Shown here piece by piece: positions 1,268 to 17,637 of a DNA stretch of 49,446 nucleotides; position 1 is the first letter of the stretch; each line of letters begins with the position of its first letter. The notes under the pieces were generated by a model that saw nothing but the letters and a program-made list of their open reading frames with translations, made no database searches and had not been told where the DNA came from. The stretch spans positions 1-49,446 of the forward strand of contig DSAQ01000131.1 in NCBI GenBank assembly GCA_011046395.1, read 5' to 3'. The position numbers were made by a program, and so were the translations under genes. Source of the stretch: Pseudomonadota bacterium (GTDB lineage: Bacteria > Desulfobacterota > QYQD01).

Positions 1268-2947
1268 TCAGGATGTGATCGGCAAGTTAACGATGCAGGT
1301 GGTGCCTTCTCCTACTTTACTCTTTATTTCGATAGACCCACCGTGGTCCTCAATTATCTTTCGCGAAATAGCCAGCCCGAGTCCTGTCCCCTTGGGTTTT
1401 GTCGTAACAAATGGGTTAAATATATCCTGAAGCTTTTCACTGGGAATTCCTTTCCCGGTATCCGTGACTATAACTTTGATCATCTGGCCTTCCATATCCG
1501 TGGTAATGTCCAGTTTACCGCCTTGGGGCATGGCCTCGACTGCATTTTTGGCCAGGTTAATAAGGACCTGCTTAATCTGCCGGGGATCAAACGAGCTGGC
1601 CGGAATATCAGACTTCAGTGATTGGGTAAATTCTATCCCCTGTTTTTGAAGCCCTTCGGACATCAAGCTATAAATATCTAACGCCACCTCATTGATATTC
1701 TCTATGCTCTTCTGGGGCTGGGCCATTCTCGCAAAATCTGATACATCGACAAGCAAGCTTTCCAGCCGCTTTATCTCGTCAGTTACGATCTTTAGCTTTT
1801 TTCTATTCGGGTCTTCAGGCCCTAGGGACTCAAAGACCTGTTTGGAAAAACCGCCGATGAGCATAAGGGGGTTCTTGATCTCATGCGCCATATGGGCGGC
1901 GCCCTTGCCGATGGTGGCTAATCTTTCCGCCCGCAGGTTCCTTTCGTACATGCGCTCTAATTCTCCCCTGGATCTCTTTAATTCCGAGACCATATGACAA
2001 AAAGAATCGCCCAACTGAACTATCTCATCCCCCACGTGCTCCTTATACACTGAGCATTCACGACACTCATCAAGCTTGTCCGGGAACTTTCCCATAGGCT
2101 GGCCCTTACAAAGGGTGCCATCGACAAACCAGCACATCACATCGGTGCGCCCATAGGCGGGGCAGTCTTTCTTATCACATTTTTCTATCTCCCAACACTT
2201 TACCCCCTTGCCTAAGTCAAGCTTGACCTCCAGGTTGCCACGGCTGACCTCGTCAGTCCACGCAGTCAGTACGGATATAGGACGGGTGATAGCCTTTGTC
2301 AGCCACTTATTTAAAAAAAAGCCTATGAGGGTGATAGAGATGATAAAATAAAAAAGATCGCGGCGCAGATGGCCACCGACTATTTCTTCAATACGACCCC
2401 ATTTATAACCAACCGTCAAAACCCCCAGGAGCGCTGGCTCTTCTCCATGGCATTTAAAACACGCCTTTTCGTTAGGTATGAGCATGGCATAACGAAGAAC
2501 TTTCTCCGGTTTCTCGGGATGTTCCACCCACCGCATCTCCAGACCCTTGGTCAGCTTACCGGTGCGTAAGGCCTCCAGAGTAATACCAGATTCCGTCACC
2601 CTTCCGATATTGCCTTTTGCCACACCACTATAGCGTATAACGCCTTTGGTATCACACAGATGCACGACATCAATATCTCGTAATGTACGCAGGCGCTCTA
2701 ATATGCTCTGGACCTGCTCCATCTCGCCATCGAGCATCGGATATTCAACGCTCTTCATGACGGTATCACTGGTTTCGGCAGCCTTCCTCTCCTCTTCCTC
2801 CAGGAAATCCTTTCGGTGCGATACTACATCTATATATGTAAAGGTGCCCATGCCTATAAGCAAGATCAGCCCTACACCCAACATAACCTTTACCCGAAGG
2901 CTGCGCAAAAGTAAGAAAGCTTTTAGTTTTTCTTTGAGATGCACCAT
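1268..2947 (-). CDS. Sensor histidine kinase with periplasmic CxxCH site, HAMP, Cys-rich double-CW insert, HisKA and HATPase
   Basis: Two TM segments flank a periplasmic domain of about 155 aa carrying CFKCHG. A HAMP-like linker follows, then KCWEIEKCDKKDCPAYGRTDVMCWFVDGTLCKG...CRECS. H-box is AHMAHEIKNPL; N/G boxes are NLAKNAVEAM, DTGKGI and GTGLGLAISRKI. Confidence 0.9.
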   Translation of the reverse strand: MVHLKEKLKAFLLLRSLRVKVMLGVGLILLIGMGTFTYIDVVSHRKDFLEEEERKAAETSDTVMKSVEYPMLDGEMEQVQSILERLRTLRDIDVVHLCDTKGVIRYSGVAKGNIGRVTESGITLEALRTGKLTKGLEMRWVEHPEKPEKVLRYAMLIPNEKACFKCHGEEPALLGVLTVGYKWGRIEEIVGGHLRRDLFYFIISITLIGFFLNKWLTKAITRPISVLTAWTDEVSRGNLEVKLDLGKGVKCWEIEKCDKKDCPAYGRTDVMCWFVDGTLCKGQPMGKFPDKLDECRECSVYKEHVGDEIVQLGDSFCHMVSELKRSRGELERMYERNLRAERLATIGKGAAHMAHEIKNPLMLIGGFSKQVFESLGPEDPNRKKLKIVTDEIKRLESLLVDVSDFARMAQPQKSIENINEVALDIYSLMSEGLQKQGIEFTQSLKSDIPASSFDPRQIKQVLINLAKNAVEAMPQGGKLDITTDMEGQMIKVIVTDTGKGIPSEKLQDIFNPFVTTKPKGTGLGLAISRKIIEDHGGSIEIKSKVGEGTTCIVNLPITS

Positions 2948-3001
2948 TCAGACCTTCTTTCTGTAGTGAACATCATTTGTCAACGGCAAAAGATATCAAT
3001 A

Positions 3002-3131
3002 GAGGCTCTTGCGAAATTGTCTGTCATCCCCGAATGATTCTATCGGGGATATGGTTTTTACTTGGATAAAACCAGATTCCCGCTCAAAAGCGTTGCGGGA
3101 ATGACAAAAAATGGAGTTTTGCAAGAGGCTC
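3002..3131 (+). mobile_element. MITE-like 130-bp element, copy 2 (same orientation as copy 1)
   Basis: See 1131..1260. The terminal inverted repeat is better preserved here: gaggctcttgcgaaa ... ttttgcaagaggctc. Confidence 0.7.
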
Positions 3132-3153
3132 AATAGTTAACATTTTTCACACG

Positions 3154-3197
3154 TAACCAATGAATGATGACCGATAATCAGTGACATTGCCTATAAA
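3154..3197 (+). repeat. 7-nt-periodic repeat block, copy 2 of 2
   Basis: taaccaatgaatgatgaccgataatcagtgacattgcctataaa aligns with 63..107. It abuts the stop codon of the cytochrome gene. Confidence 0.6.
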
Positions 3198-3641
3198 TCA
3201 GTACCACCCTGGATGTCTGTGTCCGCTATGACAGGTAGTGCAGAGATTTTTAGGAATGGTCAAAGTCCTCTGATGTTCCTCTTTCGTTGGAGCCTTAAGA
3301 TGCAGGCTGGCCGGGCCATGACAGGACTCGCACTGCTTATTAGCCATATGCAGAGTCTCTTCTACGCTGCGAAACCCGCCCGGCTGTCCAAAACCTGTAG
3401 TATGGCAGCGAAGGCAATTCGGATCACGGTCTTTCTTTCTCATCTGGATAATTCGAAAATTCTTGGAGTACTTCCACGTTAAGTATGTCTCTACCTCTTT
3501 AGGGTGACACTCTTTACACTTTGCCATCCCCACATAGGTAGCCTTGCCCTTTGCCGCCTGCGCTGTTTGTGCGGTAAGCGACAAGCCCATACCGTAAGTA
3601 AAAAATAACCAAAAAGCCACTATCATAATAAATATTTTCAT
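3198..3641 (-). CDS. Tetrahaem c-type cytochrome (cytochrome c554-like family), secreted
   Basis: Four CxxCH motifs (CKECH, CLRCH, CESCH, CTTCH). Signal peptide MKIFIMIVAFWLFF...AQAAKG. Start uncertain: ATG 3641 preferred, and the ORF track allows 3689. Confidence 0.8.
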   Translation of the reverse strand: MKIFIMIVAFWLFFTYGMGLSLTAQTAQAAKGKATYVGMAKCKECHPKEVETYLTWKYSKNFRIIQMRKKDRDPNCLRCHTTGFGQPGGFRSVEETLHMANKQCESCHGPASLHLKAPTKEEHQRTLTIPKNLCTTCHSGHRHPGWY

Positions 3642-3966
3642 TATCCCCTGACACCCCCTGTTATTTGTTTTTGTAACCAGTTGCAACATCTATAAATTAT
3701 ACATTAAATGCATTTCCCTCCCCAGTCAAGCCCACAATGAACCATCCACAAATCGGGACTGTAATACCGGGCGTTTTGATCCATTAACAATTATCTATTA
3801 CGCCACAGAAAACCCTTGACTAATGAATGGTTATGGTCTATGAAAATCAAGTATTGACTGATAAACTGCGCAAGCTAAAGTTTGCAGTTACAGATGCAAT
3901 TAATGACTTTGGTAAGGACCTCATTGGTAAGGATGTTTAACGGAGGTTCGGAAAGGAGAGGTTGGA

Positions 3967-5019
3967 ATGGATAAGACTGGCATTAAAAATGGGCCACAGG
4001 CTTTAACAAGCCGTAGAGATTGTCTCAAAATCATAGGGATGCTCGGCCTGGGTATGGCCGTCCCAAGCGTTTGGCCGACATCATCCGAGGCCAAACTTTC
4101 TAACGGTCTTAATCAGGTCAGTAGAACCCTTCCCCTTATGGGCACTTTTGTCAATATAACCGTGCTGCATCCATCTCAGGACAGGGCCATCGAGGCTGTG
4201 GAAAAGGGCTTTGCACGGATGGAGGAACTAGTCAAGGTATTTGACCGCTACTCTAACAGCACCCCGGTATCCTGGTTAAACCATAAGGGACAACTTAAGG
4301 ACGTCTGCCCTGAACTAGCACTGGTTATGAGCAAGGCCGCCTACTTTCATTTCCTGAGCCAGGGTTCTTTTGACATAACAGTGCAGCCCCTTGTTGACTT
4401 TTATAAAGAAGCATTTGCCAAGACCGGCCATGCGCCGTCACCAGAAAAGGTTAAAGAAAAATTAGCCCTAGTTGATGCCGATAAGATACAGTTTAATAAG
4501 CAAGGTATTCGTTTTTTAAAAGAAGGCATGGGCATCACCCTCGATGGTATTGCTAAAGGGTATATTGTTGACGAAGCCGCCAACGCCCTGAAGAAAATAG
4601 GCATACAGTATGCGCTGATCAATGCCGGTGGGGATATACGGGCCATTGGCGGGAACGGCCCGGATAAGTCCTGGAAAATCGGCATTACCGACCCTTGTAA
4701 GCGTAAGGAATATCTACAGATTATACAATTGAATAATGGCGCAATAGCTACCTCGGGTAACTACGAGGTCTATTTTGATCGGGAAAAGCTCTACCACCAC
4801 ATTATTGATACGCATACCGGCCGGTCTCCCAGAAATACTGCAAGTGTAAGTATTACAGCACCCACGGTTATGGAGGCCGACGCGCTTTCCACCACTGTCT
4901 TTGTTGAAGGCATAGAAAAAGGCATGCGGCTTGTGGAGGCATTGCCGAATGTGGAGGCTATGGTAATAATAACCAGCGGGAATAAGAAATTCGCTTCTAA
5001 GGGTTGGAAGACGGCCTAA
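3967..5019 (+). CDS. apbE: FAD:protein FMN transferase ApbE, Tat-exported
   Basis: Twin-arginine motif SRRDCLKI followed by a hydrophobic stretch. ApbE signatures ITLDGIAKGYIVD, LINAGGDI and ATSGNYE. SD ggaaaggagagg lies upstream of the ATG. Confidence 0.9.
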   Translation: MDKTGIKNGPQALTSRRDCLKIIGMLGLGMAVPSVWPTSSEAKLSNGLNQVSRTLPLMGTFVNITVLHPSQDRAIEAVEKGFARMEELVKVFDRYSNSTPVSWLNHKGQLKDVCPELALVMSKAAYFHFLSQGSFDITVQPLVDFYKEAFAKTGHAPSPEKVKEKLALVDADKIQFNKQGIRFLKEGMGITLDGIAKGYIVDEAANALKKIGIQYALINAGGDIRAIGGNGPDKSWKIGITDPCKRKEYLQIIQLNNGAIATSGNYEVYFDREKLYHHIIDTHTGRSPRNTASVSITAPTVMEADALSTTVFVEGIEKGMRLVEALPNVEAMVIITSGNKKFASKGWKTA

Positions 5020-5181: not shown

Positions 5182-6072
5182 TTACGGCACCAACAGCGTC
5201 GGAAGCTCAGATGCCTCGGCTATACGGTGTGAGACACTCCCGATAAAAAACTCCTTAACGCGATCCTTCCCTGTCGTTCCCTGTACAATCATGGTGGAGT
5301 TCAACTCTCGAGAAAGCCGTATAATCTCACTCGCGGTACGCCCGGCGGCCAGATGGGGCTCGGCCTCAAGCCCCGCTTTCTTCAAAGTCGCACAGTATTT
5401 GTCCAGCCTTTCCTTACTTTCCTTCTCTATTCGATATAACTCTGTCTTATCGAGACCTTTGGATATCTTAACCCCAATTACGTGGACCACATCTACTTTA
5501 TCTACAGCGCCCTTCAGGGATGTGATAAATTCAAGCGCATTCTGCGATGGTTTCGACCAATCCGTAGCGAACAAGGGCCTCTGGAAGGGATGTTCATTAA
5601 CACGCCTTACACATTGTCCCTCCATATCACAATAAACCATATACTTGCTTATAAGAACCGGGATGGCCGTACTCCGGCGCAATAAATCAAGGGTATGTGA
5701 ACCCACATAGACTTTTTCCAGGGCTGTCCGTTTTTTCCGTCCGGCTACAATCAGGTTGACCTTCTCCTTTTCAGCAATTCTGACTAGCTTTGGAACCGGC
5801 TCGCCAACCTCGATGCGGATTTTACTGTCCACACCTGCCTTGGACAGGGCCTCCTGCCAATCCTCAAACCGGATCCGGGCCTGCTCCCGCAGACGCTCCT
5901 CTTCATCCTTCATGTAGCCCCCGTAAGGCACAAAGCCCACTTCCTCGCGGGGGATTATGTAGGTGAGGATTATCTCCTTAAGCCCGGCCGCCTTCAAATC
6001 CAGAAGGGACTCCAGGGCGTCAAAGGCCAATTCCCTGAATTTAGTGGCGAACAAAACCTTGGTAAGTTTCAT
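5182..6072 (-). CDS. Tandem-domain universal stress protein
   Basis: About 296 aa with two USP-like halves (KVLFATKF...LIVAGRKKRT...GSHTLDLLRRSTAIPVLI and a second half ending MIVQGTTGKDR...GSVSHRIAEASELPTLLV). Start ATG 6072 is preceded by AAGGAGGG. Confidence 0.8.
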   Translation of the reverse strand: MKLTKVLFATKFRELAFDALESLLDLKAAGLKEIILTYIIPREEVGFVPYGGYMKDEEERLREQARIRFEDWQEALSKAGVDSKIRIEVGEPVPKLVRIAEKEKVNLIVAGRKKRTALEKVYVGSHTLDLLRRSTAIPVLISKYMVYCDMEGQCVRRVNEHPFQRPLFATDWSKPSQNALEFITSLKGAVDKVDVVHVIGVKISKGLDKTELYRIEKESKERLDKYCATLKKAGLEAEPHLAAGRTASEIIRLSRELNSTMIVQGTTGKDRVKEFFIGSVSHRIAEASELPTLLVP

Positions 6073-6082
6073 AGAACCCTCC

Positions 6083-7528
6083 TTATACAAAAAAGATGAA
6101 GCTTATAACAATAAATGTCGAAATCAAAAAGGGAATAGAATACTTGAGCATATACCCGAAGAAACTGGGCATAGGCGTACCTGCTTCCTCAGCGATAGAT
6201 CTTACCATAAAGTTCGGGGCATTGCCAATGTAAGTGCAGGCTCCAAAAAATACCGCGCCGGCCGCGATGCCTTTAAGATATATGTTATTTTCCGCAATCA
6301 AAAGCGGCACGGCCTGCGCCTCGGCCATACCCGGATAGAAACCACCCAGGGCCGTACTGAAGAAAGTCAGATACGTAGGCGCATTGTCCAGGAAGCTGGA
6401 AAGCATACCGGTCATCCAGAAGTAGTGTATGGGCTCCTTAACGGTCTCAATGAGAAAAGCCAGTTGTCCCTTTGCCCCGGCCTTGAGGATCAGGAGACAG
6501 GGAACCATGGTCAAAAATATACCGATGAAGAGATAAGCTACTTCCTGTATAGGAAACCACGTGAAGTCATTGTCTTCCCGGAGTTTCTTGGGGGTAGCAA
6601 TCAGGGATAAAACACCCAGGAGAATCAAAAGGCCGTCCCGCACCCACTCCTGAACACCGCGATGCACACCCAGTACGGATATTTCTCCCCATTTGACCAT
6701 GCCGCTCATCAGCACGGCGCCTACCACACCGCCCAGGAATATAAAGTTATAGATACCTTCGACTTTAAGCGGTTCCTTGACCCCTTCTTCTACCGGGGCC
6801 GTGACACCCTCTTTTTTGTAGAAATAGGTATCGAGAACAAAGTATATCACTAACAATATGCCAACTGCCACCAACATATGGGGCAGGATGTTGAATGTCC
6901 AGAAAAAGGGGACTCCGTGCAGAAAACCAAGAAATAAAGGCGGGTCGCCCAGGGGTGTCAAGGAACCACCGATATTGGCCACCAGGAATATAAAGAAGAC
7001 GACCATAAAGGTCCGGTACTTCCGGTAGTTATTGGCCCGCAGGAAGGGGCGGATCATCAGCATGGCCGCCCCGGTAGTACCCATCCACGAGGCCAGCGCC
7101 GTACCAATGATAAGCATGACCGTATTTACCACCGGCGTACCTCTCAAACTCCCCCGGAGCAGAATTCCGCCCGCTATCGTATAGAGTGCCCAAAGGAGAA
7201 TAATGAAAGGCACATAGTCCGCCAGTATAATGTGCAGAAACTCATAAAGCGCCTGCCCTTTGTACGCAATCAGGAAAGGGATGGCTATGGCTGCGGCCCA
7301 GAAGGCAGAGATCTTGCCGAAGTGATGATGCCAGAACTTCGGTGCGAAGAGAGGAAAAAGCGCTATGGAAAGCAGCATCCCGGCAAAGGGAATGCAGCTA
7401 TAAAGCGGCAGTACCTCACCTAAATTGATTCCGCCATGCCCGTGCCCGGCCTCAGAGGCCAGCGCAACCGATGGGAACACGGTTAGGCATAACAACAAAA
7501 AAAGCAACGACAACTTCCCTCGAGTCAT
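6083..7528 (-). CDS. ArsB/NhaD-superfamily ion transporter (putative Na+/H+ antiporter or CitMHS-like permease)
   Basis: 481-aa polytopic membrane ORF with more than 10 hydrophobic segments and a signal-like N-terminus followed by GHGHGG. The family assignment comes from overall resemblance, not from a diagnostic motif. Confidence 0.55.
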   Translation of the reverse strand: MTRGKLSLLFLLLCLTVFPSVALASEAGHGHGGINLGEVLPLYSCIPFAGMLLSIALFPLFAPKFWHHHFGKISAFWAAAIAIPFLIAYKGQALYEFLHIILADYVPFIILLWALYTIAGGILLRGSLRGTPVVNTVMLIIGTALASWMGTTGAAMLMIRPFLRANNYRKYRTFMVVFFIFLVANIGGSLTPLGDPPLFLGFLHGVPFFWTFNILPHMLVAVGILLVIYFVLDTYFYKKEGVTAPVEEGVKEPLKVEGIYNFIFLGGVVGAVLMSGMVKWGEISVLGVHRGVQEWVRDGLLILLGVLSLIATPKKLREDNDFTWFPIQEVAYLFIGIFLTMVPCLLILKAGAKGQLAFLIETVKEPIHYFWMTGMLSSFLDNAPTYLTFFSTALGGFYPGMAEAQAVPLLIAENNIYLKGIAAGAVFFGACTYIGNAPNFMVRSIAEEAGTPMPSFFGYMLKYSIPFLISTFIVISFIFFV

Positions 7529-7574
7529 AAGTATTCTCCTCTAGTATCCTCTGCAGAATCTTATGGCTTTCCAG

Positions 7575-8015
7575 TTAAGCCACTACCTTTGTAATCTTTG
7601 GATTGTAGGACTGATCTCCGCTATATTTGAGGTGGGCGTAATATTTTAGGCCGATGAAGGTAAGTACGACGAACAAAAGACTAAAAACGGCCCCTGAAAT
7701 ATCCTTATCGCCCAAAACCTGCGAGTGATAACCTATCAGCGCCCCGGCCACCAGACCGGCCAAGGGAACAAGATATAAGATAAAGGATGCCTTTACTCCC
7801 CCCTCCACCTTAAGCGAGACACGCACCCGCTGGCCTTTGGAGGCCCCTACGGTATTTAATGCCGTAAGCACTGTCTCGCCTTCGCCAAGCAGCCCGCACG
7901 TCTTGTGGGTCGAGCAACTGTCACACGCCGGGCTGCGCCTTATCCTAACCTTAGCCTGGTTGCCTTCAACGGCAACTACTTCTCCTTCTTCTTCGCGAAT
8001 ATGGGCCATTCTCAA
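7575..8015 (-). CDS. rseC: RseC/MucC family protein (SoxR-reducing system component)
   Basis: N-terminal beta-rich domain with Cys cluster ACDSCSTHKTCG, followed by two C-terminal TM helices. The typical RseC architecture, and its genomic linkage to rnf/rsx. Confidence 0.7.
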   Translation of the reverse strand: MRMAHIREEEGEVVAVEGNQAKVRIRRSPACDSCSTHKTCGLLGEGETVLTALNTVGASKGQRVRVSLKVEGGVKASFILYLVPLAGLVAGALIGYHSQVLGDKDISGAVFSLLFVVLTFIGLKYYAHLKYSGDQSYNPKITKVVA

Positions 8016-8488
8016 TCCACAACCCAGACCGTACAGTTCCGTACAGAGCTTACCACCTTGTTTGAGACGCTGCCGAACATAAATTCCTTTATTGCAGAAA
8101 CGCCTCTTCGCCCGACAACTATGGTATTATACTTTCCTTCCTGGGCCTCAAGCATAATGTCCCTGGCTATACCGACCTTTTTTACCTGAATCTTGACAGT
8201 TATCCTGTTACCAGAGATACCTGCTTCCTCCATAATTTTCCTGGCTGAAGCCGCAACGGATTCCATCATCTTGCGCTTCTCTTCCGTCAGTCCCTTTAAC
8301 TCCAGCATCTTACTGGCAAAGACGGGATGCAGCGAGGGTTCTTTTTCCAGGCCAGTGCCGGGAGCTTCCGGAAGCACACTGAATAGGGTTACCTCCACGG
8401 CCTTTGGGTTCACGGTATCAGCCACATACCGCACCGCCTTCATGGAATATTCTGACTCATCCATGGCTATCAATATCTTCTGAGACAT
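8012..8488 (-). CDS. Universal stress protein
   Basis: KILIAMDESEYS ... IVVGRRGVSAIKEFMFGSVSNKVVSSVRNCTVWVV (USP ATP-binding motif). Begins 11 nt downstream of rnfB. Confidence 0.85.
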   Translation of the reverse strand: MSQKILIAMDESEYSMKAVRYVADTVNPKAVEVTLFSVLPEAPGTGLEKEPSLHPVFASKMLELKGLTEEKRKMMESVAASARKIMEEAGISGNRITVKIQVKKVGIARDIMLEAQEGKYNTIVVGRRGVSAIKEFMFGSVSNKVVSSVRNCTVWVVD

Positions 8489-8499
8489 TCAACGCCTCC

Positions 8500-9306
8500 T
8501 CATACTACAGTGAAAACTAAGCTTTGAATAATACCGGTCGGGCACTTCTCAAAACACTTCCCGCAACCCGTGCATTTGGTGTGATCCACGACCGAAAGGA
8601 ACTTCACCACCTCAACCGCCTTTTCCGGACACGCCTTTTTACACAAGCCGCATCCCAGACAGCCGGCCTCACATATCTCCTTGACCAGCTTGCCAACATC
8701 ATGCGAGCTGCACAGGCTGGCCGCTTTCTGCGATACCGGAACTACCTTAGGGATATGCCGCGGACACAGCTTAACACATGTCCCGCAGGCCGTACATTTC
8801 TCATCATCTACCCTGGGCAGGCCGTCTTCACCCATGCTGAGCGCCCCAAATGGACAATTGGCCACGCAGGTACCCAGCCCCAGGCATCCGTAACTGCAAG
8901 ATTTATCACCACCGGAGACCAGCATGGCCGCCCGGCAGTCATTAATACCCATGTATTTGAACTTTCTTTCGGCCCTGGCACTGTCGCCTTTACAGAAGAT
9001 CCGGGCTACCTCGCGTTCTGCCGCCGCGGCCGAAATACCCAGCACGCCGGCCACTGCCTGCGCCACCGAGGCCCCGCCGGCCTTACAGGCGTTAACCGGC
9101 GCTTTGCCTTCCACCATAGCCGCCGCACAGTCGCTGCAGCCGGCGTAGCCGCAGCCGCCACAATTGGCGCCCGGCAATACATCTGCCACCTGGCCGATGC
9201 GCGGATCGACATAAACAAAGAATACTTTGGCGGCAACACCCAGGAGAATGCTCAAAAACACCCCTAGACCGCCCATGGCTAAGATCGCTGTCGTTACTGG
9301 TCCCAT
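8500..9306 (-). CDS. rnfB: Rnf complex subunit B (polyferredoxin)
   Basis: N-terminal TM helix. LPGANCGGCGYAGCSDCA matches the RnfB Fe-S domain. Several CxxCxxCxxxCP ferredoxin motifs follow. Confidence 0.9.
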   Translation of the reverse strand: MGPVTTAILAMGGLGVFLSILLGVAAKVFFVYVDPRIGQVADVLPGANCGGCGYAGCSDCAAAMVEGKAPVNACKAGGASVAQAVAGVLGISAAAAEREVARIFCKGDSARAERKFKYMGINDCRAAMLVSGGDKSCSYGCLGLGTCVANCPFGALSMGEDGLPRVDDEKCTACGTCVKLCPRHIPKVVPVSQKAASLCSSHDVGKLVKEICEAGCLGCGLCKKACPEKAVEVVKFLSVVDHTKCTGCGKCFEKCPTGIIQSLVFTVV

Positions 9307-9342
9307 TTTTACTTACCCTCTTATTAACTTAGATTCTGAAAA

Positions 9343-9924
9343 CTACTTGGCCAGCCCTAAAAGCCCGGCAAATGTTAATCCCATCATGCCGGCCGTTATC
9401 AAACAGATGGGAACGCCTTGTAGCAACTTGGGTACACGCGCTGTAGAATCCATCCGCTCCCGGATACCGGCCAGTAATATAAGAGCCATGTTAAAACCTA
9501 ACGCCGTCGATATGGCATAGACTAGGGCTTGCATAAAGGTGTATTCTTCTTTTATATTAAGCACTGCCACACCAAATATCATACAGTTCGTGGTAATCAG
9601 GGGTAAGAAGATACCGAGCGCCCGGTACAGGGGCGGCGCGACCTTTTGCATGATGATCTCTACAAGCTGTACCAGAGCCGCAATTACCAGAATAAAAACA
9701 AGAGTCTGGAGGTATTCCAGTCCGAAAACATCCAATACGGTTTTTTGGAGTATCCAACAGATGAGGCTAGCCAGCACATTGACAAAAAGAACTGCCGCCG
9801 ACATGCCCAGAGCACTACTCATGGAACTTGAGACGCCAACGAAAGGACAATTTCCCAAAAACCTAATCAATAGAATATTATTAATAAATATGGCTGAAAC
9901 CACCAACATCAGATAATCTTCCAT
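9343..9924 (-). CDS. rnfA: Rnf complex subunit A
   Basis: FLGNCPFVGVS and GIFLPLITTNC...LAGIRERM are near-identical to conserved RnfA/RsxA blocks. Confidence 0.92.
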   Translation of the reverse strand: MEDYLMLVVSAIFINNILLIRFLGNCPFVGVSSSMSSALGMSAAVLFVNVLASLICWILQKTVLDVFGLEYLQTLVFILVIAALVQLVEIIMQKVAPPLYRALGIFLPLITTNCMIFGVAVLNIKEEYTFMQALVYAISTALGFNMALILLAGIRERMDSTARVPKLLQGVPICLITAGMMGLTFAGLLGLAK

Positions 9925-9973
9925 CGCCTGCTCCTCAATTATAAATTAGAACGCAAATTTTCGCCGATACCCG

Positions 9974-10058
9974 CAGAAAATTATTTTCTGTATTTAAAAC
10001 CTTGACAATCTGCGTTCACCCTGTTGAATAAGGGCCCCTTTGGAAAATTCAACAGGGT
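9974..10058 (-). other. Two perfect stem-loops in the 148-nt rnfE-rnfA spacer
   Basis: cagaaaa-tta-ttttctg (9974..9990), and caccctgttgaat...attcaacagggt (10017..10058) with a loop of about 17 nt. Confidence 0.6.
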
Positions 10059-10072
10059 TTATCCGCGTCCTA

Positions 10073-10684
10073 CTATTTACGTTTTCTTCTCCCCCGCGCC
10101 GAGATCACATTCATGATTCCCAAAAGCAGCCCCAGGCAAACAAAGGCCCCAACGGGCCTGATCATGAATTCAAATCCTGGATAGCCCTCCCACATCACCG
10201 GAAGACCAAACCAGGTACCCTTACCCAGAATCTCGCGTATGGTAGCCACAACAACCAGCGAAATAGTAAAACCAAGCCCCATTCCCACTCCGTCAGCTAA
10301 GGAAAGCATAACGCCTTCCTTGCGGGCAAAGGCCTCGGCACGCCCCAAAACCAAACAGTTCACAACGATCAATGGAATCCAGATGCCTAACACGAGGAAA
10401 AGAGAATAAAAATACGCCTGCATGGTCAGCTCAACTATAACCACGCCAGTGGCGATAATAACAATAAAGACGGCAATACGGACTTTGTCCGGGATTATCT
10501 TACGCAAAGCCGAAACCAGCACATTACTCATGGTTGTCACGAAAATGACGGCACATCCCAGACCGAGGCCGTTTTTTACATCCGTCGTAACTGCCAGAAC
10601 CGAGCAAAGCCCCAATACAAAACGGAAGGGTGCTATCTCTTTCCATAAGCCTTTTGTAAACTCTTTAACAATGCGCGCTGCCAT
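10073..10684 (-). CDS. rnfE: Rnf complex subunit E
   Basis: GLWKEIAPFRFVLGLCSVLAVTT and LGIWIPLIVVNCLVLGRAEAFA match conserved RnfE/RsxE blocks. Confidence 0.92.
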   Translation of the reverse strand: MAARIVKEFTKGLWKEIAPFRFVLGLCSVLAVTTDVKNGLGLGCAVIFVTTMSNVLVSALRKIIPDKVRIAVFIVIIATGVVIVELTMQAYFYSLFLVLGIWIPLIVVNCLVLGRAEAFARKEGVMLSLADGVGMGLGFTISLVVVATIREILGKGTWFGLPVMWEGYPGFEFMIRPVGAFVCLGLLLGIMNVISARGRRKRK

Positions 10685-10702
10685 CTATATAACCCCCTTC
10701 TC

Positions 10703-11287
10703 CTAGAACCCCAGTTGAGATTTATGCTTGGTGTACAGTTCCACGCCCGACTTCACGGCATTACTTACAGCGGTAGATGAAACCGTGGCGCCACTCAAAC
10801 CCTGGATCTCAGCGCCCAGGCTAAAATTAGCAGTTAGAGGCTTGCCCACAAACTGGGCACAAAAAGACGGATCTTCCTTGACCCTTGTCCCCACGCCGGG
10901 AGTCTCAGACAGGGTAGTCACTGCAACACCCTGCATCGTGCCGTCGGGCTTGACGGCCATCATCACACCTACGTTTCCGGCAAATCCCGGGGCCTCAGTC
11001 TCAAAGGCAATGGTAATGACCTGACCGGCTTTCTTGGCATAAAAGAAGGTAGTCGCAACATCTTTGCCCTTCTTGTCCTTGCCGGTTACAATCTCCTTCC
11101 GATCAGAAACCGGGTCATTATCATAGCCAACCAAGATCTGTTTCAAGGCCGGTTCTTTAATAAACTTGATTTTCTGATAGGTAATCTGGTCTGCCGTCGA
11201 AATACGCACCAAAGCTAATCCGCCCCCACAAACAGCGGAAACAATCGTCAGTACGACAATCATTTTGATAATATCACGAAGAGACAC
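10703..11287 (-). CDS. rnfG: Rnf complex subunit G (FMN-binding, periplasm-facing)
   Basis: N-terminal anchor helix. FMN_bind region with the flavinylation motif LSGATVSS. Confidence 0.9.
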   Translation of the reverse strand: MSLRDIIKMIVVLTIVSAVCGGGLALVRISTADQITYQKIKFIKEPALKQILVGYDNDPVSDRKEIVTGKDKKGKDVATTFFYAKKAGQVITIAFETEAPGFAGNVGVMMAVKPDGTMQGVAVTTLSETPGVGTRVKEDPSFCAQFVGKPLTANFSLGAEIQGLSGATVSSTAVSNAVKSGVELYTKHKSQLGF

Positions 11288-12245
11288 TGGCTTTTACCCT
11301 CCCATAGACTCTTGGTTTGATCTTATCCAACAATGGCGTCAACATGCTTATGATAAATATGGCAAAATAGGCCCCATCAATCCACTGGGACCACATACGA
11401 ATAATCATAGCCAGCACCCCACAAAGAAGACCGTAAATAATCATCCCCGGCTTGGTTACGGGTGACGTTGTGGGATCAGTAGCCAGGAAGAAAGCAGCCA
11501 AAAAGCCCCCGCCGGCTAACAAATGGAATACAGGACTGGCATATTGTTCAGCGTCAGATAGCCAGAAGATACCGGAAAATATGACCATACCTAAAAGAAA
11601 GCTCGCCGGGATGTACCAGGAAATAGTGCGCCTTATGATAAGGAAGATACCGCCGAGTAACAAAGCGACCTTGGAGACCTCACCGATAGCCCCAATGATG
11701 GGTATCCCAAGTAAGAGATCTTTGTTGGTAAAATACATCGCAAGAGAAGAAACTCCTTCGTCCCTCAGCACCTGCAAAGGAGGAAACTCCGTCATTAAAT
11801 CTCCCTCCGGGATAGCCCAGGCAATCATCTGCTGCGGATAGGACAACTGCAAAGCAACATAAGCCACGAGAACTCCATTAAATGGATTGCAGCCCCGGCC
11901 GCCATAAATCTCTTTTCCAAGAAGAATCAGTAACAAAGTACCAATGATAATGATCCACCAGGGGAGCGTAGGCGGCAGGAGCATTGCGAAGATAAGGCCG
12001 CTGGCTGCTCCGCTTAAATCGCTGACTGTTATCTCACGCCCCATCATCTTCTGAAAGATTGCTTCCCAGGCCACTGCGGAGATAACGGAAATGGCTATAA
12101 CCTTAAGTGCTGCAAAACCGTAAAGGTAGCAGCCCATACCGACTGCCGGAAGTAAGGCTATAATTATAGAAAGCATCATTTTCCGCACAGAGTTGCCGCT
12201 ATGGATATGCGGCGTAGCAGATACGACAAGTTCCGGGGCTTTCAT
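11274..12245 (-). CDS. rnfD: Rnf complex subunit D (atypical: canonical flavinylation Thr not found)
   Basis: Conserved blocks SATPHIHSG, GKEIYGGRGCNPFN, GEVSKVALLLGG and FFLATDPTTSP match RnfD/NqrB. Overlaps rnfG by 14 nt and rnfC by 4 nt. Confidence 0.88.
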   Translation of the reverse strand: MKAPELVVSATPHIHSGNSVRKMMLSIIIALLPAVGMGCYLYGFAALKVIAISVISAVAWEAIFQKMMGREITVSDLSGAASGLIFAMLLPPTLPWWIIIIGTLLLILLGKEIYGGRGCNPFNGVLVAYVALQLSYPQQMIAWAIPEGDLMTEFPPLQVLRDEGVSSLAMYFTNKDLLLGIPIIGAIGEVSKVALLLGGIFLIIRRTISWYIPASFLLGMVIFSGIFWLSDAEQYASPVFHLLAGGGFLAAFFLATDPTTSPVTKPGMIIYGLLCGVLAMIIRMWSQWIDGAYFAIFIISMLTPLLDKIKPRVYGRVKASVSS

Positions 12246-13537
12246 TCGCTACTCCTTTGCGCCATAATTTGTGCCTTGCCAAATTTTATCCAGTGCACCA
12301 TTGGTATCATTACCGGGCACACGTAGGCACAGCATCCACATTCAATGCATGTGAATATATCATTGTCCTGAGCCTTCGAATACATCCCTTTTTCTGAAAA
12401 ACCGGAAATAATAAACGGCATCAGGCCCACAGGGCAAATCTCCACACATAACCCGCATTTAATACAGACAGCCGCATCGAACCTGGTAATATCTTTTTCA
12501 TGCTGGACAAAAATACCCAGCACCTCTTTGGTCACCGGCGTCTCGGTATTGGCAATGGCCGTGCCCATCATGGGGCCACCAGATATAACCTTGCCCATCC
12601 CTTCCACAGAAATTCCACAATGCCCTAAAACTTCCCTAATCGGTGTACCTATCCTTACCTGAACGTTCTTGGCTCCGGTACCATTGCTCCTGGTAACGGT
12701 GATAAACCTATCCACGACCGGCTTCTTCTCCGCCATAGCCCGGCCCACTGCCGCCACTGTCTCGACACTCAGGACCAGGGCGCCTATATCGGCCACACAA
12801 TAAGCCTCTGTACAGGGCACTTCCTTACCCAGTATCGACTTTACCAGTAAGAGATCAATTGCCTGGGGATACTTAGGGTTTAACCCCACTATGGTAGCCG
12901 CACCACCACAGGCAGAGCCAATAGCCGATATAGCCTGCGCGGCATTTTCATCGACAGCTATATACACCGATGCTGCTCCAATTATGCTTTTTATAGTATC
13001 TATCCCGCAGGCCACTTCCTGAACCCTTTCAGACAACAGACGTGACCGGCTCGAGAGTACCGGCTCTATGTCCATGGCATTCACAATAAGGGCATTAGCC
13101 CGGCGAGACTTTGCCTCATTGAGCTTCGCGACAAGAGGGACCGGCTTTATATCGAAATCAACGATTCCCGCCTGTTGTATGGTGGTCAATGGATCTGCGC
13201 TGCTCTCCAGTCCTACCCACTCATCCTTGCCATCAGATTCTATGACCACAGCCGGGACGAATCCCCCTAAAAGATGGGGATAGGCCTTTATTACCTCGGC
13301 TACTTTACCGGAAACCGTGGCATGGATGGAAGCCCCTTCCGGGGTAGCGCTTTCACCGATGACTTGTCCGACTTTGACCTCGTCACCCTTTTTAACCTTG
13401 GCATTACAAACTCCGCCGAGATCTTGTCTGAGAGGGATAGTTACAACACCGGAGGGGATGATACGTTCGAAGGGTTTATTTGCGCTTACATCTGAAATAG
13501 ACAAGCGAATACCGCCAGAAAAGCTACCTGCGCTCAT
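12242..13537 (-). CDS. rnfC: Rnf complex subunit C (atypical: FMN/NADH motifs degenerate)
   Basis: GGPMMG plus two ferredoxin motifs (CIKCGLCVEICP, CIECGCCAYVCP), collinear with E. coli RsxC as I recall it. SD GGAAGGAGAG lies upstream of the ATG. Confidence 0.88.
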   Translation of the reverse strand: MSAGSFSGGIRLSISDVSANKPFERIIPSGVVTIPLRQDLGGVCNAKVKKGDEVKVGQVIGESATPEGASIHATVSGKVAEVIKAYPHLLGGFVPAVVIESDGKDEWVGLESSADPLTTIQQAGIVDFDIKPVPLVAKLNEAKSRRANALIVNAMDIEPVLSSRSRLLSERVQEVACGIDTIKSIIGAASVYIAVDENAAQAISAIGSACGGAATIVGLNPKYPQAIDLLLVKSILGKEVPCTEAYCVADIGALVLSVETVAAVGRAMAEKKPVVDRFITVTRSNGTGAKNVQVRIGTPIREVLGHCGISVEGMGKVISGGPMMGTAIANTETPVTKEVLGIFVQHEKDITRFDAAVCIKCGLCVEICPVGLMPFIISGFSEKGMYSKAQDNDIFTCIECGCCAYVCPVMIPMVHWIKFGKAQIMAQRSSE

Positions 13538-13700
13538 ATTTGTTCACTCTCTCCTTCCAGCGAATTACGGGATTGGATATACCTAAACATACTCTTTGTC
13601 AAGAGAAAAAGGCGATATTATGATATGTAACTATGATTATCTCATAACCGGACCATTTACAAATGCAAATTTAAAATGGGACTAATACGGTCCGCAAAAG

Positions 13701-13732
13701 AAAAACGGGAAGTTTATAAACTTCCCGTTTTA
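13701..13732 (-). terminator. Palindromic rho-independent terminator between the cytochrome c3 gene and rnfC
   Basis: aacgggaagtt-tata-aacttcccgtt is a perfect hairpin, followed on the minus strand by tttttctttt. Confidence 0.7.
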
Positions 13733-13751
13733 AAAAACTACATCTGCTTAC

Positions 13752-14135
13752 TTATTTTTTGTGACATTCGCCACACATCACAGGGAGTGACTTGCCTGCT
13801 GCCAGTTTGGTCTCACGGTGACAACCCACACAATTCTCGTGAAAGGCCTTCATGAGCCCCATCTTCTTGCCCTCAGCCTTCAGGCCATGGCAGGTCGCAC
13901 AATTCGTCTCCCGCGACTCATCCCAGACATTCTCTCCATCTACATAAAAATGATGACACGCTGTACACTCAATGGTAGCAAAGTGCTGGGCATGTTGGAA
14001 TGTTACGGCCGGCCTCTGTCGATTTTCGAAGGCTTTATGTTCCAGCTTTATCACTTCCTCCTGGGCGTAAGCACAGGTAGCTATTATAAAAATAGCCAAA
14101 ACTATCATTAGCAGAATGCCCTTGTTATTTCTCAT
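13752..14135 (-). CDS. Tetrahaem cytochrome c3 family protein, periplasmic
   Basis: Signal peptide ending CAYAQE. Four haem motifs CTACHH, CATCHG, CVGCHR and CGECHK, with the class III cytochrome c3 spacing (VTFQHAQH...C..CHH). SD AGGAGG. Confidence 0.88.
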   Translation of the reverse strand: MRNNKGILLMIVLAIFIIATCAYAQEEVIKLEHKAFENRQRPAVTFQHAQHFATIECTACHHFYVDGENVWDESRETNCATCHGLKAEGKKMGLMKAFHENCVGCHRETKLAAGKSLPVMCGECHKK

Positions 14136-14527: not shown

Positions 14528-15829
14528 TCATTTTGATAAGAAAATATCGAATAACTCCACCAGATGCACAGCCTGCGCATTAAGCCCATGTCTAGATAAG
14601 CCTTCCTTCCACTGCAATAGGCAACCCATACAACTGGTGACTAACATGTCCACGTCCATGTCTTTTAGTACCATAATTCGCCTGGCGAGGATTTCACACG
14701 ATAAATCGTAATGGGTAAGGTTGAATAGTCCACCGTGTCCACAGCATGCGGGGCCATCCTCGAATTCACGGAAATCAACGCCCGGTAAAGACCTGATAAG
14801 CAGGCGCGGTTCCTCGATAATATTCTGTTTAAATCGAAAATGGCATGGATCGTGATACCTCACCTTCAAAATTTCATCTTTTACCGTCAAGGCGTACAAA
14901 TACCGGGGGAAGTCCCTCTCATGAAACAAAAAAGCCGATATATCTATCACTTTTGCCGAAAACTCCGCCGCTTTTTCTGCAAAAACCGGGTCACCGGCCA
15001 GGAGTTTAGGATAATTAAATCTTAGATGTGAGCTGCAAGAGGCGCAGTTCGTAATGATGTGATCGCATCGGCTGTCAATAAATACGGATATATTGGCCCT
15101 GGCCAAGGATTGTGCCGTCTCTTCATCCCCGGCCGCAAAGGCCGGAAACCCGCAGCATTTTTGTTTTTCAGGCACATAAATGGGCTCGCCAAGAAAATCA
15201 AAAATATTCAGGATGGCCTTACCAACGTCAGGGAAAAGATAATTTGTGACGCACCCTGTAAAGTAGGCAGCCTTAACTGAGGTGCTCGTCTCTTCTGACG
15301 AGTTCTCCTCCAGAAAAAACTTCTCGGCTAATGCCGGCAACCATGATCTTCCGGCTAACAGGGGAATCGGAAACCGACAATGAAGACCGCTATCTTCCGG
15401 GACTCTTTTACAAAGAAGGCCCTGGATCAGGGAACCGCCTTTTAATATAAAAGGCAAAAGATGTTCAGAATCCAGAAGGTAATGAAAAAAGCACCGTTTC
15501 CCCGCAGGAAGCCCCTTCTCTTCGACCAACCTTGCCCGCGCTTCCTGTATGGAGGCATCCGCATTTACCCCGGCGGGACAGGCATTTGAACAGGCCCCGC
15601 AAAGGAGGCAGTAAGATAGCAGCTCGGCAAAGCGGTCAGAAAACGGCAACCTGCCTTCCCGGTTCGCCTCGATAAGACTCAATTTACCCCGGGGCGCATA
15701 AACCTCCATTCCTGTCACCTGGTAAACAGGACAAACGCTCATACACGTCCCGCATTTGTTGCATGAGGGTGTGCTAATGGATTCTACCTCCTGATCTCCA
15801 CTTTCTTTATCTCTCCCTGTACTTATCAA
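14528..15829 (-). CDS. (Fe-S)-binding CCG-domain oxidoreductase (GlcF/HdrD-like)
   Basis: Two N-terminal 4Fe-4S motifs (CNKCGTCMSVCP, CLLCGACSNACP) and two C-terminal CCG motifs (KCCGFPAF, ACCGHGGL). No TM segments. Confidence 0.8.
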   Translation of the reverse strand: MISTGRDKESGDQEVESISTPSCNKCGTCMSVCPVYQVTGMEVYAPRGKLSLIEANREGRLPFSDRFAELLSYCLLCGACSNACPAGVNADASIQEARARLVEEKGLPAGKRCFFHYLLDSEHLLPFILKGGSLIQGLLCKRVPEDSGLHCRFPIPLLAGRSWLPALAEKFFLEENSSEETSTSVKAAYFTGCVTNYLFPDVGKAILNIFDFLGEPIYVPEKQKCCGFPAFAAGDEETAQSLARANISVFIDSRCDHIITNCASCSSHLRFNYPKLLAGDPVFAEKAAEFSAKVIDISAFLFHERDFPRYLYALTVKDEILKVRYHDPCHFRFKQNIIEEPRLLIRSLPGVDFREFEDGPACCGHGGLFNLTHYDLSCEILARRIMVLKDMDVDMLVTSCMGCLLQWKEGLSRHGLNAQAVHLVELFDIFLSK

Positions 15830-16361
15830 ACCACCAGGAGCAGAAATCTGTTTCTAATATCTCCGCGGCAAGCTCCTGGCCGGCCGGTGCACTGAGCCGT
15901 TTCACTGCGTGTTCAAGCCATTCTCGGGCGAACCTGTTCCCGAGATCAAGCTGTTCTTTGAGTTCAAGAATTAAATCCAGTTGATCGGCATCCCGGGCCA
16001 GTTTAGCCTCTTCTGTTTGACCGGCCTTAAACTCCGCGATTAACCCGGCGATGTCTTCCCCAAACTCCAAACCGCCGGTTAAGGCGTCCACCGCTTTTCC
16101 TGAATCCACCGTAGCATAGTCCTTATAAACATAATTCAGGTCCCCGGTGCGGGCCTCAACCAGATCGTGGAAGAGGCACATATCCATTACCCTGGAACGA
16201 TCAACGCCCGGTGAAAGCCCGGCCAGCACATATCCGATGAGAATGACCCTATAGGAATGATCCGCCACTGATTCCTGACCGGAACCCAGAAAACGAAAGC
16301 CGGTACGCGGCGTCTTTTTCAACATCCCGGCCTCAAAGAGCAATTTGGCAATCCGCTTCAT
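15807..16361 (-). CDS. HD-domain phosphohydrolase (YfbR-like)
   Basis: H...HD...D pattern: ADHSYRV, CLFHDLVEARTGDL, DADQLD. Start ATG 16361 preferred (MKRIAKLLFEAG). Confidence 0.75.
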   Translation of the reverse strand: MKRIAKLLFEAGMLKKTPRTGFRFLGSGQESVADHSYRVILIGYVLAGLSPGVDRSRVMDMCLFHDLVEARTGDLNYVYKDYATVDSGKAVDALTGGLEFGEDIAGLIAEFKAGQTEEAKLARDADQLDLILELKEQLDLGNRFAREWLEHAVKRLSAPAGQELAAEILETDFCSWWFDKYRER

Positions 16362-16589
16362 AACCCCTCCTATAATCATCTCCCTTTAAAAATCAAGCGG
16401 GCTTCTGGCCTCTTTCAACCCTGCCCGGCAGCAATTCTTAATAGAGGAAAACGGCCTGGTTAGCCTGCTTTTGCTGTGCTGGAGATTGACGTTTATCCTG
16501 TAGCTTTCTTTAGGATATCGTGCTTCCTTGTAATATTACATAATGATAATTATTCAATTAGAAAATTAATAAAAAAAACAAAAAGTTAC

Positions 16590-17455: not shown

Positions 17456-17637
17456 CAAATAACAGGTTATCGCACAATCGGGTAGCCGGGGGTGTTTAGC
17501 CCCCAGCCCCCACACCACCTAGCATCCGCCTGCGGCGGACTAGGCGGTTCATGAAGCCTATCGGGCCGTAGCCGGATAGTGAATGTCCACCCACAGTTTT
17601 TTGAGCCATTGATTGGTCATGCCGAAAAGTGATGACC

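Follow-up and report, generated by a model that had tools for sequence, protein, structure and literature searches.

The locus examined in the present work raises the question of where electrons leave an Rnf-type complex whose usual exit, the site for nicotinamide adenine dinucleotide (NAD(H)) on RnfC, seems to be missing. It lies in a window of 49,446 nucleotides (nt), which is the whole stretch of DNA analysed (positions 1 to 49,446 of contig DSAQ01000131.1, assembly GCA_011046395.1, GTDB lineage Desulfobacterota, QYQD01). Between positions 5182 and 14135, the minus strand carries, in this order, a cytochrome c3 gene, a hairpin and the genes rnfCDGEAB-usp-rseC-CitMHS_2-usp. We will argue, on the basis of sequence comparisons, that the encoded complex probably links ferredoxin to something besides NAD+, most likely periplasmic cytochromes. 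The more specific reading that we favour, with a confidence somewhat short of even, is that of a six-subunit Rnf-type ion-translocating complex, belonging to a distinct sulfate-reducer (Thermodesulfobacteriota) clade, that would have given up the use of NAD(H) at RnfC and would release the electrons of ferredoxin to cytochrome c3.

It should be stressed that this idea is not original. The initial annotation of the locus had presented a ferredoxin:cytochrome c Rnf as something without a characterised bacterial counterpart, but such a system, and likewise an RnfC that does not serve NAD, has been proposed before (PMC10920352, PMC5109826, PMC4841214, PMC11887813 supplement), in two cases as a ferredoxin:cytochrome c3 function for the Rnf of sulfate reducers (PMC10920352; PMC11887813 supplement). 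With the main idea published and no new system at hand, the value of the analysis lies in confirmation, in a sharper definition and in the extension to clusters with a small RnfB.

The six rnf genes are contiguous, and all of them score above the TIGR0194x subfamily cut-offs. Together with the cytochrome gene and the spacer, the features are as follows.

13752-14135, minus strand: secreted, TmcA-like tetrahaem cytochrome c3 of 127 amino acids (aa), with four CxxCH motifs and a signal peptide (Pfam Cytochrom_CIII, E 1.6e-15)
13702-13731, minus strand (read from 13731 to 13702): terminator-like hairpin 3' of the cytochrome c3 gene, a stem of 13 base pairs followed by a T-tract (folding free energy -18.7 kcal/mol, z -4.3)
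13571-13605, minus strand: promoter-like box TTGACA…TATATC, ca 40 to 65 nt before the rnfC start, conserved in relatives, of putative function
12242-13537, minus strand: rnfC (TIGR01945, 344.9 bits; Pfam RnfC_N and Complex1_51K)
11274-12245, minus strand: rnfD (TIGR01946, 285.9 bits)
10703-11287, minus strand: rnfG, periplasmic subunit binding flavin mononucleotide (FMN) (NCBIfam RnfG_DVU2794, 185.5 bits; TIGR01947, 105.3 bits)
10073-10684, minus strand: rnfE (TIGR01948, 215.7 bits)
9343-9924, minus strand: rnfA (TIGR01943, 246.9 bits)
8500-9306, minus strand: rnfB, small polyferredoxin type of 268 aa (PF04060 and multiple Fer4; TIGR01944, 111.9 bits)

On the ferredoxin side, the sequences indicate that the sites of RnfB, of the RnfA/E iron centre and of the ApbE-dependent FMN of RnfG are intact. 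RnfB, whose best NCBIfam match is rnfB_Methano (288.8 bits), has its PF04060 iron-sulfur (Fe-S) domain at the N-terminus and consists of Fe-S domains only, with no NAD(P)H domain. RnfA and RnfE each have two intramembrane iron-centre cysteines, all of them in conserved columns; Cys26 and Cys114 of RnfA are conserved in 99% of 113 homologues, and Cys27 and Cys110 of RnfE fall inside the conserved LGLC and VNC motifs. In RnfG, the segment LSGATVSS aligns with the flavinylated threonine of the solved chains 7zc6_G and 9eri_G, the SGAT site being intact.

RnfC was aligned with three solved structures, those of A. vinelandii (8AHX), A. woodii (9ERI) and C. tetanomorphum (7ZC6). The segment AGIVDFDIKPVPL…VNAMDIEPVLS of the window protein aligns with AGIVGLGGATFPT…NGAECEPYLT of all three, for which the consensus at the same place is AGIVG(L/M)GGA(T/I)FP(T/A)…N(G/A)(A/S)ECEPYLT. 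Where the NuoF-type motifs GxGGAxFP, NGAECEPY and YPQGxEK would be expected, the window protein reads VDFDIKPVP, NAMDIEPV and YPQAIDL (for the third one, YPQG(G/A)EKQLI has become YPQAIDLLLV), and it accordingly lacks the FMN/NAD(H) motifs. It still matches Pfam Complex1_51K and RnfC_N (E 3.8e-21 and 4.9e-19), only the inner cofactor motifs being lost, and it has the motifs for two [4Fe-4S] clusters (C358/361/364/368 and C397/400/403/407), which are invariant across the clade alignment described below. An AlphaFold model, with a predicted local distance difference test score (pLDDT) of 80.9, finds its best structural match in the RnfC chain 9eri_C, with a template modelling (TM) score of 0.77. 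Against the solved RnfC chains in general the TM scores are 0.75-0.77 at 32% identity, compared to 0.5-0.6 at 16% identity for NqrA. As far as the model tells, then, the fold of RnfC is kept and the ligand motifs alone are gone.

A case of this kind might recall NqrA of the Na+-NQR, an RnfC homologue that has no cofactors and is still part of its complex; here, too, an RnfC-family subunit without nucleotide or flavin binding is retained. However, Fe-S clusters are absent from NqrA, and NQR includes NqrF as well as a quinone site, whereas the window RnfC keeps both [4Fe-4S] motifs and no NqrF is present. A cofactor-less subunit of the NqrA type was ruled out, given the invariant Fe-S cysteines and a model far closer to RnfC than to NqrA.

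A second flavin site is lost in RnfD. The last threonine of VTTATPL is Thr153, the covalent FMN carrier in C. tetanomorphum RnfD (PMC9588780). In the window, MTEFPPL aligns with the VTTATPL of the solved structures and places a proline at this position; the equivalents of R130 and S284 are both tyrosines, while D248 and N124 are kept (C. tetanomorphum numbering). The same picture is obtained when 122 canonical sequences are compared with 18 of the clade. The A-[T/S] pair at the Thr153 site is found in 120/122 canonical and 1/18 clade sequences; R130, beside the isoalloxazine, is arginine in 107/122 of the former and tryptophan or tyrosine in 18/18 of the latter; and S284, which contacts N5, is a small residue in the canonical set and tyrosine, tryptophan or phenylalanine in 14/18 of the clade. 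At the riboflavin/Na+ site, D248 is aspartate in 122/122 and 17/18 sequences, respectively, and N124 is asparagine in 122/122 and 13/18. The initial annotation had spoken of an apparent loss of the RnfC and RnfD flavin sites, which intact motifs on proper alignment would have contradicted. The losses are no artefact of alignment, for 69 of the 120 best RnfC homologues and all loci of one monophyletic clade have them as well.

How widespread these losses are was examined with 174 loci (referred to by L numbers) taken from genomes and metagenomes. A scan of the genome collection with the clade alignment gave mostly canonical RnfC among the matches listed, together with at least four clade loci, the rest serving as controls; a scan of metagenomes with the window RnfC alone gave six more clade loci. 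The replaced motifs are present in the closest 69 of the 120 best RnfC homologues (identity at least 38%), the other 51 being canonical; Desulfobacterales, Desulfonatronum, Desulfonatronovibrio and Desulfofervidaceae are represented in these 69. Wherever RnfC is motif-less among the 174 loci, RnfD also lacks the xA[T/S]P site, and RnfG retains SGAT. In a neighbour-joining tree of concatenated RnfD, RnfG, RnfE and RnfA, from which RnfC was excluded (100 loci, 875 columns), a single bipartition with 100/100 bootstrap support unites the 17 motif-less loci, among them the window and L171-L173. The losses therefore look, by this phylogeny, like one old and stable change. One candidate for a degenerate locus, L136, was left out, as its RnfC reading frame is split and its RnfD is canonical.

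The Desulfovibrionaceae loci of the clade, L171-L173, come from Pseudodesulfovibrio tunisiensis, a Desulfovibrio sp. and a relative of Desulfocurvibacter africanus. In these, the gene of a decahaem cytochrome (10 CxxCH, ca 255 aa) is followed after 5-7 nt by that of a short RnfC of 369-395 aa in which the glycine loop is deleted, and RnfD is again without the FMN site. Their RnfB (L171 11906-14017; L172 11911-14007; L173 12017-14143) has a C-terminal Fer4_20/Pyr_redox_2/NAD_binding_8 domain that is GltD-like and of the NAD(P)H type, and its length across these loci and L050, from a Desulfocarbo relative, is 698-710 aa (702 aa in L050). The fused domain, the shortened RnfC and the missing glycine loop extend to the Desulfocarbo relatives. 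In the relatives from these two groups, which represent the published 'Rnf2' or Tol2 type, the NAD(P)H site thus appears, from the domain content, to have moved from RnfC to RnfB.

Two further loci have unusual layouts. On a Desulfocurvibacter africanus contig (L089, 4763-5838), rnfDGEA directly follows an oppositely oriented PAS sensor gene, and tblastn found no rnfC-like or dhcA-like sequence upstream; L171, which is 78% related, differs in this respect. The locus is either an RnfC-less cluster or the result of a rearrangement or assembly effect. In Desulfonatronovibrio hydrogenovorans (L083, 4207-9690), an nqrBCDEF-like set, with no nqrA called, and apbE precede the motif-less rnf genes, and two related pumps are here side by side.

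We now turn to the path that the electrons might take. In the solved complex they pass from RnfB to RnfA/E, the FMN of RnfG, the FMN of RnfD, riboflavin, the two [4Fe-4S] clusters of RnfC, FMN and finally NAD+, and RnfG is mobile with its FMN exposed (PMC9588780). If the RnfD flavin is gone, the shortest complete path therefore ends at the RnfG FMN, on the periplasmic side. In the mechanism that we favour, reduced ferredoxin would deliver its electrons via RnfB and RnfA/E to this exposed FMN, coupled to Na+ or H+ translocation, and from there they would pass to periplasmic c3-type cytochromes, which could be the upstream TmcA-like tetrahaem protein or the general c3 pool. A reverse mode would also be conceivable, in which the ion gradient drives the reduction of ferredoxin from cytochrome c3 that has been reduced by H2 or formate. 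The RnfC/RnfD arm would probably keep a role, either that of a scaffold or that of a branch leading to a cytoplasmic partner. The reading fits what is known for D. alaskensis, because attempts to demonstrate ferredoxin:NAD+-coupled ion-gradient formation in vesicles were unsuccessful and the cytochrome gene dhcA is cotranscribed and co-regulated with rnf (PMC4841214). Extended to the whole clade, it would state that all motif-less Rnf complexes, including those with a 'classical' small RnfB that are annotated and modelled as ferredoxin:NAD+ oxidoreductases, have abandoned NAD+ and act as reversible ion-coupled oxidoreductases between ferredoxin and periplasmic cytochrome c3, with the RnfC Fe-S arm and RseC as a second output. 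For this wider form our confidence is lower than for the window itself.

The cytochrome at 13752-14135 has an N-terminal signal peptide (…CAYA/QEE) and its CxxCH motifs at residues 57, 79, 102 and 121. Against NCBIfam TmcA it scores 111.7 bits, with a cut-off of 114, and no tmcC or tmcD is present. Its gene lies on the same strand as rnfC at a distance of 214 nt. An orthologue of 90% identity is upstream of rnfC in four close relatives, L081, L082, L091 and L092, which together with the window (RnfC identity at least 89%) constitute the window lineage. In L086, whose RnfC is 55% identical, an orthologous c3 (47% identical) is located at the opposite end of the cluster, past apbE. According to the initial annotation, the cytochrome gene sits upstream of rnfC with only a terminator in between. 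The position is correct, but the spacer also contains the promoter-like box, and both elements are kept in the four relatives, the box having the sequence TCTTGACAAAGAGT(A/G)(T/C)GTTTAGGTATATCCAAT throughout the lineage. The DNA between hairpin and box is not conserved and varies among the relatives from ca 20 to ca 200 nt. Since the hairpin and the box are conserved between the genes, the cytochrome gene looks, from this pattern, like a transcription unit of its own, with at most read-through into rnf.

Linkage was scored when the gene immediately upstream of rnfC, in the same orientation, encodes a cytochrome with at least three haems. This is the case in 4/13 clade lineages and 0/149 canonical loci (p = 2.6e-5), the four being the window lineage and the three Desulfovibrionaceae loci; a conservative count, in which these make two clades only, gives 2/11 (p = 0.004). 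The expected co-occurrence of motif loss and cytochrome is thus found in one direction, in that an upstream cytochrome occurs only in the motif-less clade. In the other direction it breaks down, as at least nine degenerate lineages have no cytochrome gene within 10 kb (L002, L003, L050, L083, L087, L088, L090, L093 and L140), among them Desulfonatronovibrio hydrogenovorans (L083) and Desulfohalobium retbaense (L090), with the same degenerate RnfC and RnfD. Loci of precisely this kind had been listed as a refutation in the initial annotation. Genomic linkage is gone as a clade-wide argument, but since sulfate reducers commonly carry c3 cytochrome genes elsewhere in the genome, the unlinked loci do not exclude the mechanism itself.

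Other genes of the cluster were also considered as partners. These, and the two genes beyond them, are the following.

8012-8488, minus strand: universal stress protein (Usp), directly 3' of rnfB (Pfam Usp, E 1.3e-19)
7575-8015, minus strand: small membrane protein of the RseC/MucC family, SoxR-reducing-system type (Pfam RseC_MucC, E 2.1e-28; NCBIfam RseC, 42.6 bits, under the cut-off)
6083-7528, minus strand: CitMHS_2-family transporter (Pfam PF16980, E 1.7e-179)
5182-6090, minus strand: tandem Usp of 302 aa (Pfam Usp in the L081, L086 and L088 homologues; weak NCBIfam Usp matches)
3967-5019, plus strand: ApbE flavin transferase with the twin-arginine motif SRRDCLKI (NCBIfam ApbE, 107.7 bits, under the equivalog cut-off; the L081 orthologue is PF02424)
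3198-3689, minus strand: second secreted tetrahaem cytochrome, c554-like, with four CxxCH motifs (the L081 orthologue is Pfam Cytochrome_C554)

A gene for RseC is in the cluster in 13/15 clade and 8/72 canonical loci, one for Usp in 11/15 and 1/72, and one for the CitMHS_2 transporter in 7/15 and 0/72; apbE is inside the locus in 11/15 of the clade. A module usp-rseC-CitMHS_2-(tandem usp)-apbE stands 3' of rnfB in the window (5182-8488, minus strand), L002, L081, L086, L088, L093 and L140, and usp-rseC-CitMHS_2 shows a tighter link to the motif-less Rnf than the cytochrome does. In E. coli, RseC acts as a helper of the Rsx/SoxR-reducing system, and it could be an extra subunit or an output of the motif-less Rnf.

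The twin-arginine ApbE and the second tetrahaem cytochrome had been said to flank the locus, and their motifs could be confirmed. The link of the c554-like protein to Rnf is, however, doubtful. It is confined to the window lineage, where its gene is followed by that of a sensor histidine kinase (1268-3689, minus strand, for the pair), which has a cysteine-rich insert after the membrane/HAMP region (CWEIEKCDKKDCPAYGRTDVMCWFVDGTLCKGQ…CRECSVY). The two may constitute a redox-sensing unit independent of Rnf.

Several observations weigh against an exit at RnfG to the cytochrome. A pure exit-at-RnfG model leaves it unexplained that RnfC has kept all eight of its [4Fe-4S] cysteines and RnfD the riboflavin/Na+ aspartate D248; together, these conserved residues suggest that the arm is still used. 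The RnfC motif that has replaced the canonical one is itself conserved inside the clade (VDFD…PL, NxxDxEP), which suggests remodelling under selection for a new function and not decay. The loss of the threonine in RnfD abolishes the covalent attachment but does not prove that no flavin is bound. At the level of the genes, the conserved intrinsic terminator and the promoter-like box part the cytochrome gene from rnfC, and the nine cytochrome-free loci have the same motif losses. Finally, dhcA mutants of D. alaskensis are without phenotype, unlike rnf mutants (PMC4215793). The route from RnfB via RnfA/E and RnfG to a cytochrome, as originally drawn for this locus, is thus matched by the cofactor sites but faces the conserved RnfC/RnfD residues, the terminator and the silent dhcA mutants.

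The alternative that survives best takes up the first of these points. It states that the RnfC/RnfD arm is still the exit, leading to a cytoplasmic partner other than NAD+, and that the cytochrome is a lineage-specific accessory. The RnfG FMN would in that case pass electrons to the RnfD riboflavin, either by swinging into the vacated pocket or via the new tryptophan and tyrosine residues, and from there the two [4Fe-4S] clusters of RnfC would hand them to a protein acceptor docking at the remodelled RnfC site; examples would be DsrC, the co-encoded RseC or a carrier resembling ferredoxin or flavodoxin. The invariant RnfC cysteines and the new RnfC motif conserved within the clade are in line with this, as are D248 (17/18) and N124 (13/18) of RnfD and the fact that RseC (13/15) and Usp (11/15) are far more clade-linked than the cytochrome. 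Moreover, for two-subunit Nqr/Rnf-like complexes there is a proposal that an RnfG-like flavin samples an RnfD-like pocket without flavinylation (PMC10979944). Yet the replacement of the FMN-contact residues in RnfD leaves a longer gap from RnfG to the riboflavin, and the absence of RnfC upstream of rnfD on the one Desulfocurvibacter africanus contig (L089) hints that it is dispensable there. We regard this alternative as unlikely on balance, but as one to be taken seriously.

Less probable still, in our judgement, is that the cytochrome is simply an unrelated c3 neighbour, transcribed on its own, and that the true partner of Rnf is something else, such as menaquinone. The strong conserved terminator with a separate promoter-like box, the missing adjacent cytochrome in most clade lineages and the confinement of the c554-like second cytochrome to the window lineage would all agree with such a scenario. 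On the other hand, the adjacency is seen in the motif-less clade only (none of the 149 canonical loci), it recurs in Desulfovibrionaceae, where the 10-haem cytochrome lies 5-7 nt before rnfC, and the rearrangement in L086 has left the c3 orthologue within the cluster.

That the complex is an ordinary ferredoxin:NAD+ oxidoreductase, with FMN and NAD(H) bound to RnfC by non-canonical residues and a non-covalent FMN in RnfD, is the most improbable of the options, since, even though Complex1_51K and RnfC_N are detected, the model superposes on RnfC (TM 0.77), annotation pipelines call the protein RnfC and physiological models of D. alaskensis fit a ferredoxin:NADH activity (PMC4215793), all three NuoF-type FMN/NAD motifs are replaced (with the loop deleted in relatives), aromatics replace the RnfD pocket, in some clade members it is RnfB that carries an NAD(P)H-binding domain, and the vesicle attempts in D. 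alaskensis at a ferredoxin:NAD+-coupled gradient were unsuccessful (PMC4841214).

The preferred reading, ferredoxin to periplasmic cytochrome c3, can also be compared with known systems. With the classical Rnf complexes (9ERI, 7ZC6, 8AHX), the window shares the six subunits, the clostridial order rnfCDGEAB and the conserved sites of RnfB, RnfA/E and RnfG; the FMN/NAD(H) site of their RnfC, like the covalent FMN site and pocket of their RnfD, is missing from the window.

A closer likeness is to the Desulfovibrio operon dhcA-rnfCDGEAB-apbE (rnfF), namely Dde_0580-0587 in D. alaskensis G20 and DVU2791-2798 in D. vulgaris, for which electron transfer between DhcA and Rnf, directed to the latter, has been proposed (PMC4841214, PMC4215793). 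Our comparison with Desulfovibrionaceae rests on L171-L173, not on the G20 or Hildenborough sequences, and the arrangement in these three loci is that of the dhcA-rnf operons, also called 'Tol2-type' or 'Rnf2' in the Desulfobacteraceae literature. They fall in the same clade as the window in the RnfD+G+E+A tree, have a c3-family cytochrome before rnfC and ApbE in the cluster, and share the RnfC without FMN/NAD motifs, the RnfD without the FMN threonine and the RnfG with SGAT. The differences are that their cytochrome is decahaem and 5-7 nt from rnfC, while that of the window is tetrahaem and followed by a terminator; that their RnfC is shortened to 369-395 aa by the loop deletion, while the window protein is full-length; that their RnfB, of ca 700 aa, has the GltD-like NAD(P)H domain, while that of the window has 268 aa; and that they lack the usp-rseC-CitMHS_2 module, which the window has.

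In the literature, the Rnf2 or Desulfobacula toluolica Tol2 type is described as having an RnfC without the NADH/FMN-binding domain and a cluster that includes a gene for a small cytochrome c3, and it has been proposed that the complex may reduce this cytochrome and in this way feed Qrc; the other subunits are called very similar, with no mention of a loss of the RnfD flavin site (PMC5109826; PMC11887813 supplement). The window does not fall under this definition. Rnf2 is defined by an RnfB of ca 700 aa with an NAD-binding domain, while the window RnfB has 268 aa and is Fe-S only, and the loss in the Rnf2 RnfC is at the level of the domain, while the window RnfC still scores with RnfC_N and Complex1_51K. 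By the Rnf2 nomenclature, the small-RnfB cluster of the window would count as classical 'Rnf1'.

An archaeal precedent for a cytochrome output is the MmcA-Rnf of Methanosarcina acetivorans, a ferredoxin:methanophenazine system (PMC11024163, PMC12174285). The likeness consists in an output via an extracytoplasmic multihaem cytochrome, encoded by the first gene of the cluster, and not via NAD+. MmcA is, however, a heptahaem protein of 476 aa and kin of octahaem tetrathionate reductases, while the window cytochrome is a c3 type of 127 aa. Membership of the window in the MmcA type was rejected, as the scores for rnfC/D/G/E/A/B_Methano are 204, 200, 74, 190, 192 and 289 bits, while the cut-offs are 650, 400, 230, 350, 300 and 445. 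The Rnf locus of an uncultured Methanosarcinales member (L008, 9995-15251) keeps canonical motifs in RnfC (GLGGAAFPT, NGAECEPY) and RnfD (TGATPL), both of which the window has lost, so that a cytochrome partner alone does not imply motif loss. No reading frame containing CxxCH was found in the 10 kb upstream of this locus, although MmcA is reported to be universal in methanogens having Rnf.

With regard to what was published earlier, a 2025 review of RNF and NQR treats the Methanosarcina cytochrome only, and no sulfate reducers (PMC12174285). Three points were not found in the literature: a small-RnfB cluster with a full-length RnfC in which every FMN/NAD motif is lost, the disappearance of the flavin site and pocket from RnfD across the clade, and the union of all motif-less forms in one monophyletic group with a usp-rseC signature.

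In model sulfate reducers, Rnf is needed for growth with H2, formate and ethanol and for syntrophy, and the models assume that NADH is made from ferredoxin (PMC4215793). If RnfC has no NAD(H) site and RnfD no flavin, models based on Rnf-made NADH would need another acceptor, and cytochrome c3 would be a direct ion-coupled bridge between the cytoplasmic ferredoxin pool and periplasmic hydrogen and formate cycling. In practice, three signatures can sort 'Rnf' annotations into NAD-type and non-NAD-type, namely an RnfC with VDFD…PL where GxGGAxFP would stand, the loss of xA[T/S]P in RnfD and aromatic residues at its R130 and S284 positions; they also pick targets for biochemistry and cryo-electron microscopy.

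Some observations concern the wider surroundings. A gene for a Rex-type redox-sensing repressor (34115-34747, minus strand; Put_DNA-bind_N and CoA_binding) adjoins that of ATP synthase subunit a. A search for Rex operators (TTGTGAA-N4-TTCACAA, at most three mismatches) gave 2 matches, with 2.4 expected and none near the rnf or cytochrome genes, and provides no evidence for Rex control of either.

On the 5' side of the cytochrome c3 gene, positions 14528-15829 (minus strand) encode an HdrD/GlcF/LdhH-like Fe-S protein of 433 aa with CCG domains, which is accompanied on the same strand by a gene for an HD-domain phosphohydrolase (the pair spanning 14528-16379), likewise in L081. A CCG protein gene is near the c3 gene in L086 as well; the linkage to the clade is limited to 3/15 loci. 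The protein was considered as a TmcB-like partner of the TmcA-like cytochrome and rejected, its best NCBIfam matches being of the LdhH/GlcF/GlpC type and not Tmc.

Between the HD gene and a group of haem-biosynthesis genes there is a stretch of low guanine-plus-cytosine content (16673-19178, plus strand; 0.41 compared to ca 0.48) that encodes a 260-aa protein without a Pfam match and an AAA_14/DUF4143 ATPase. It is missing from the syntenic relative L081, and is therefore probably a recent insertion. The adjacent region (19264-23055, minus strand) has hemB (ALAD) between two radical-SAM/SPASM genes, adjoined by an AsnC/NirDL-like gene, and looks like the alternative, sirohaem-dependent set for haem biosynthesis that is typical of sulfate reducers, here located near the cytochrome and rnf genes.

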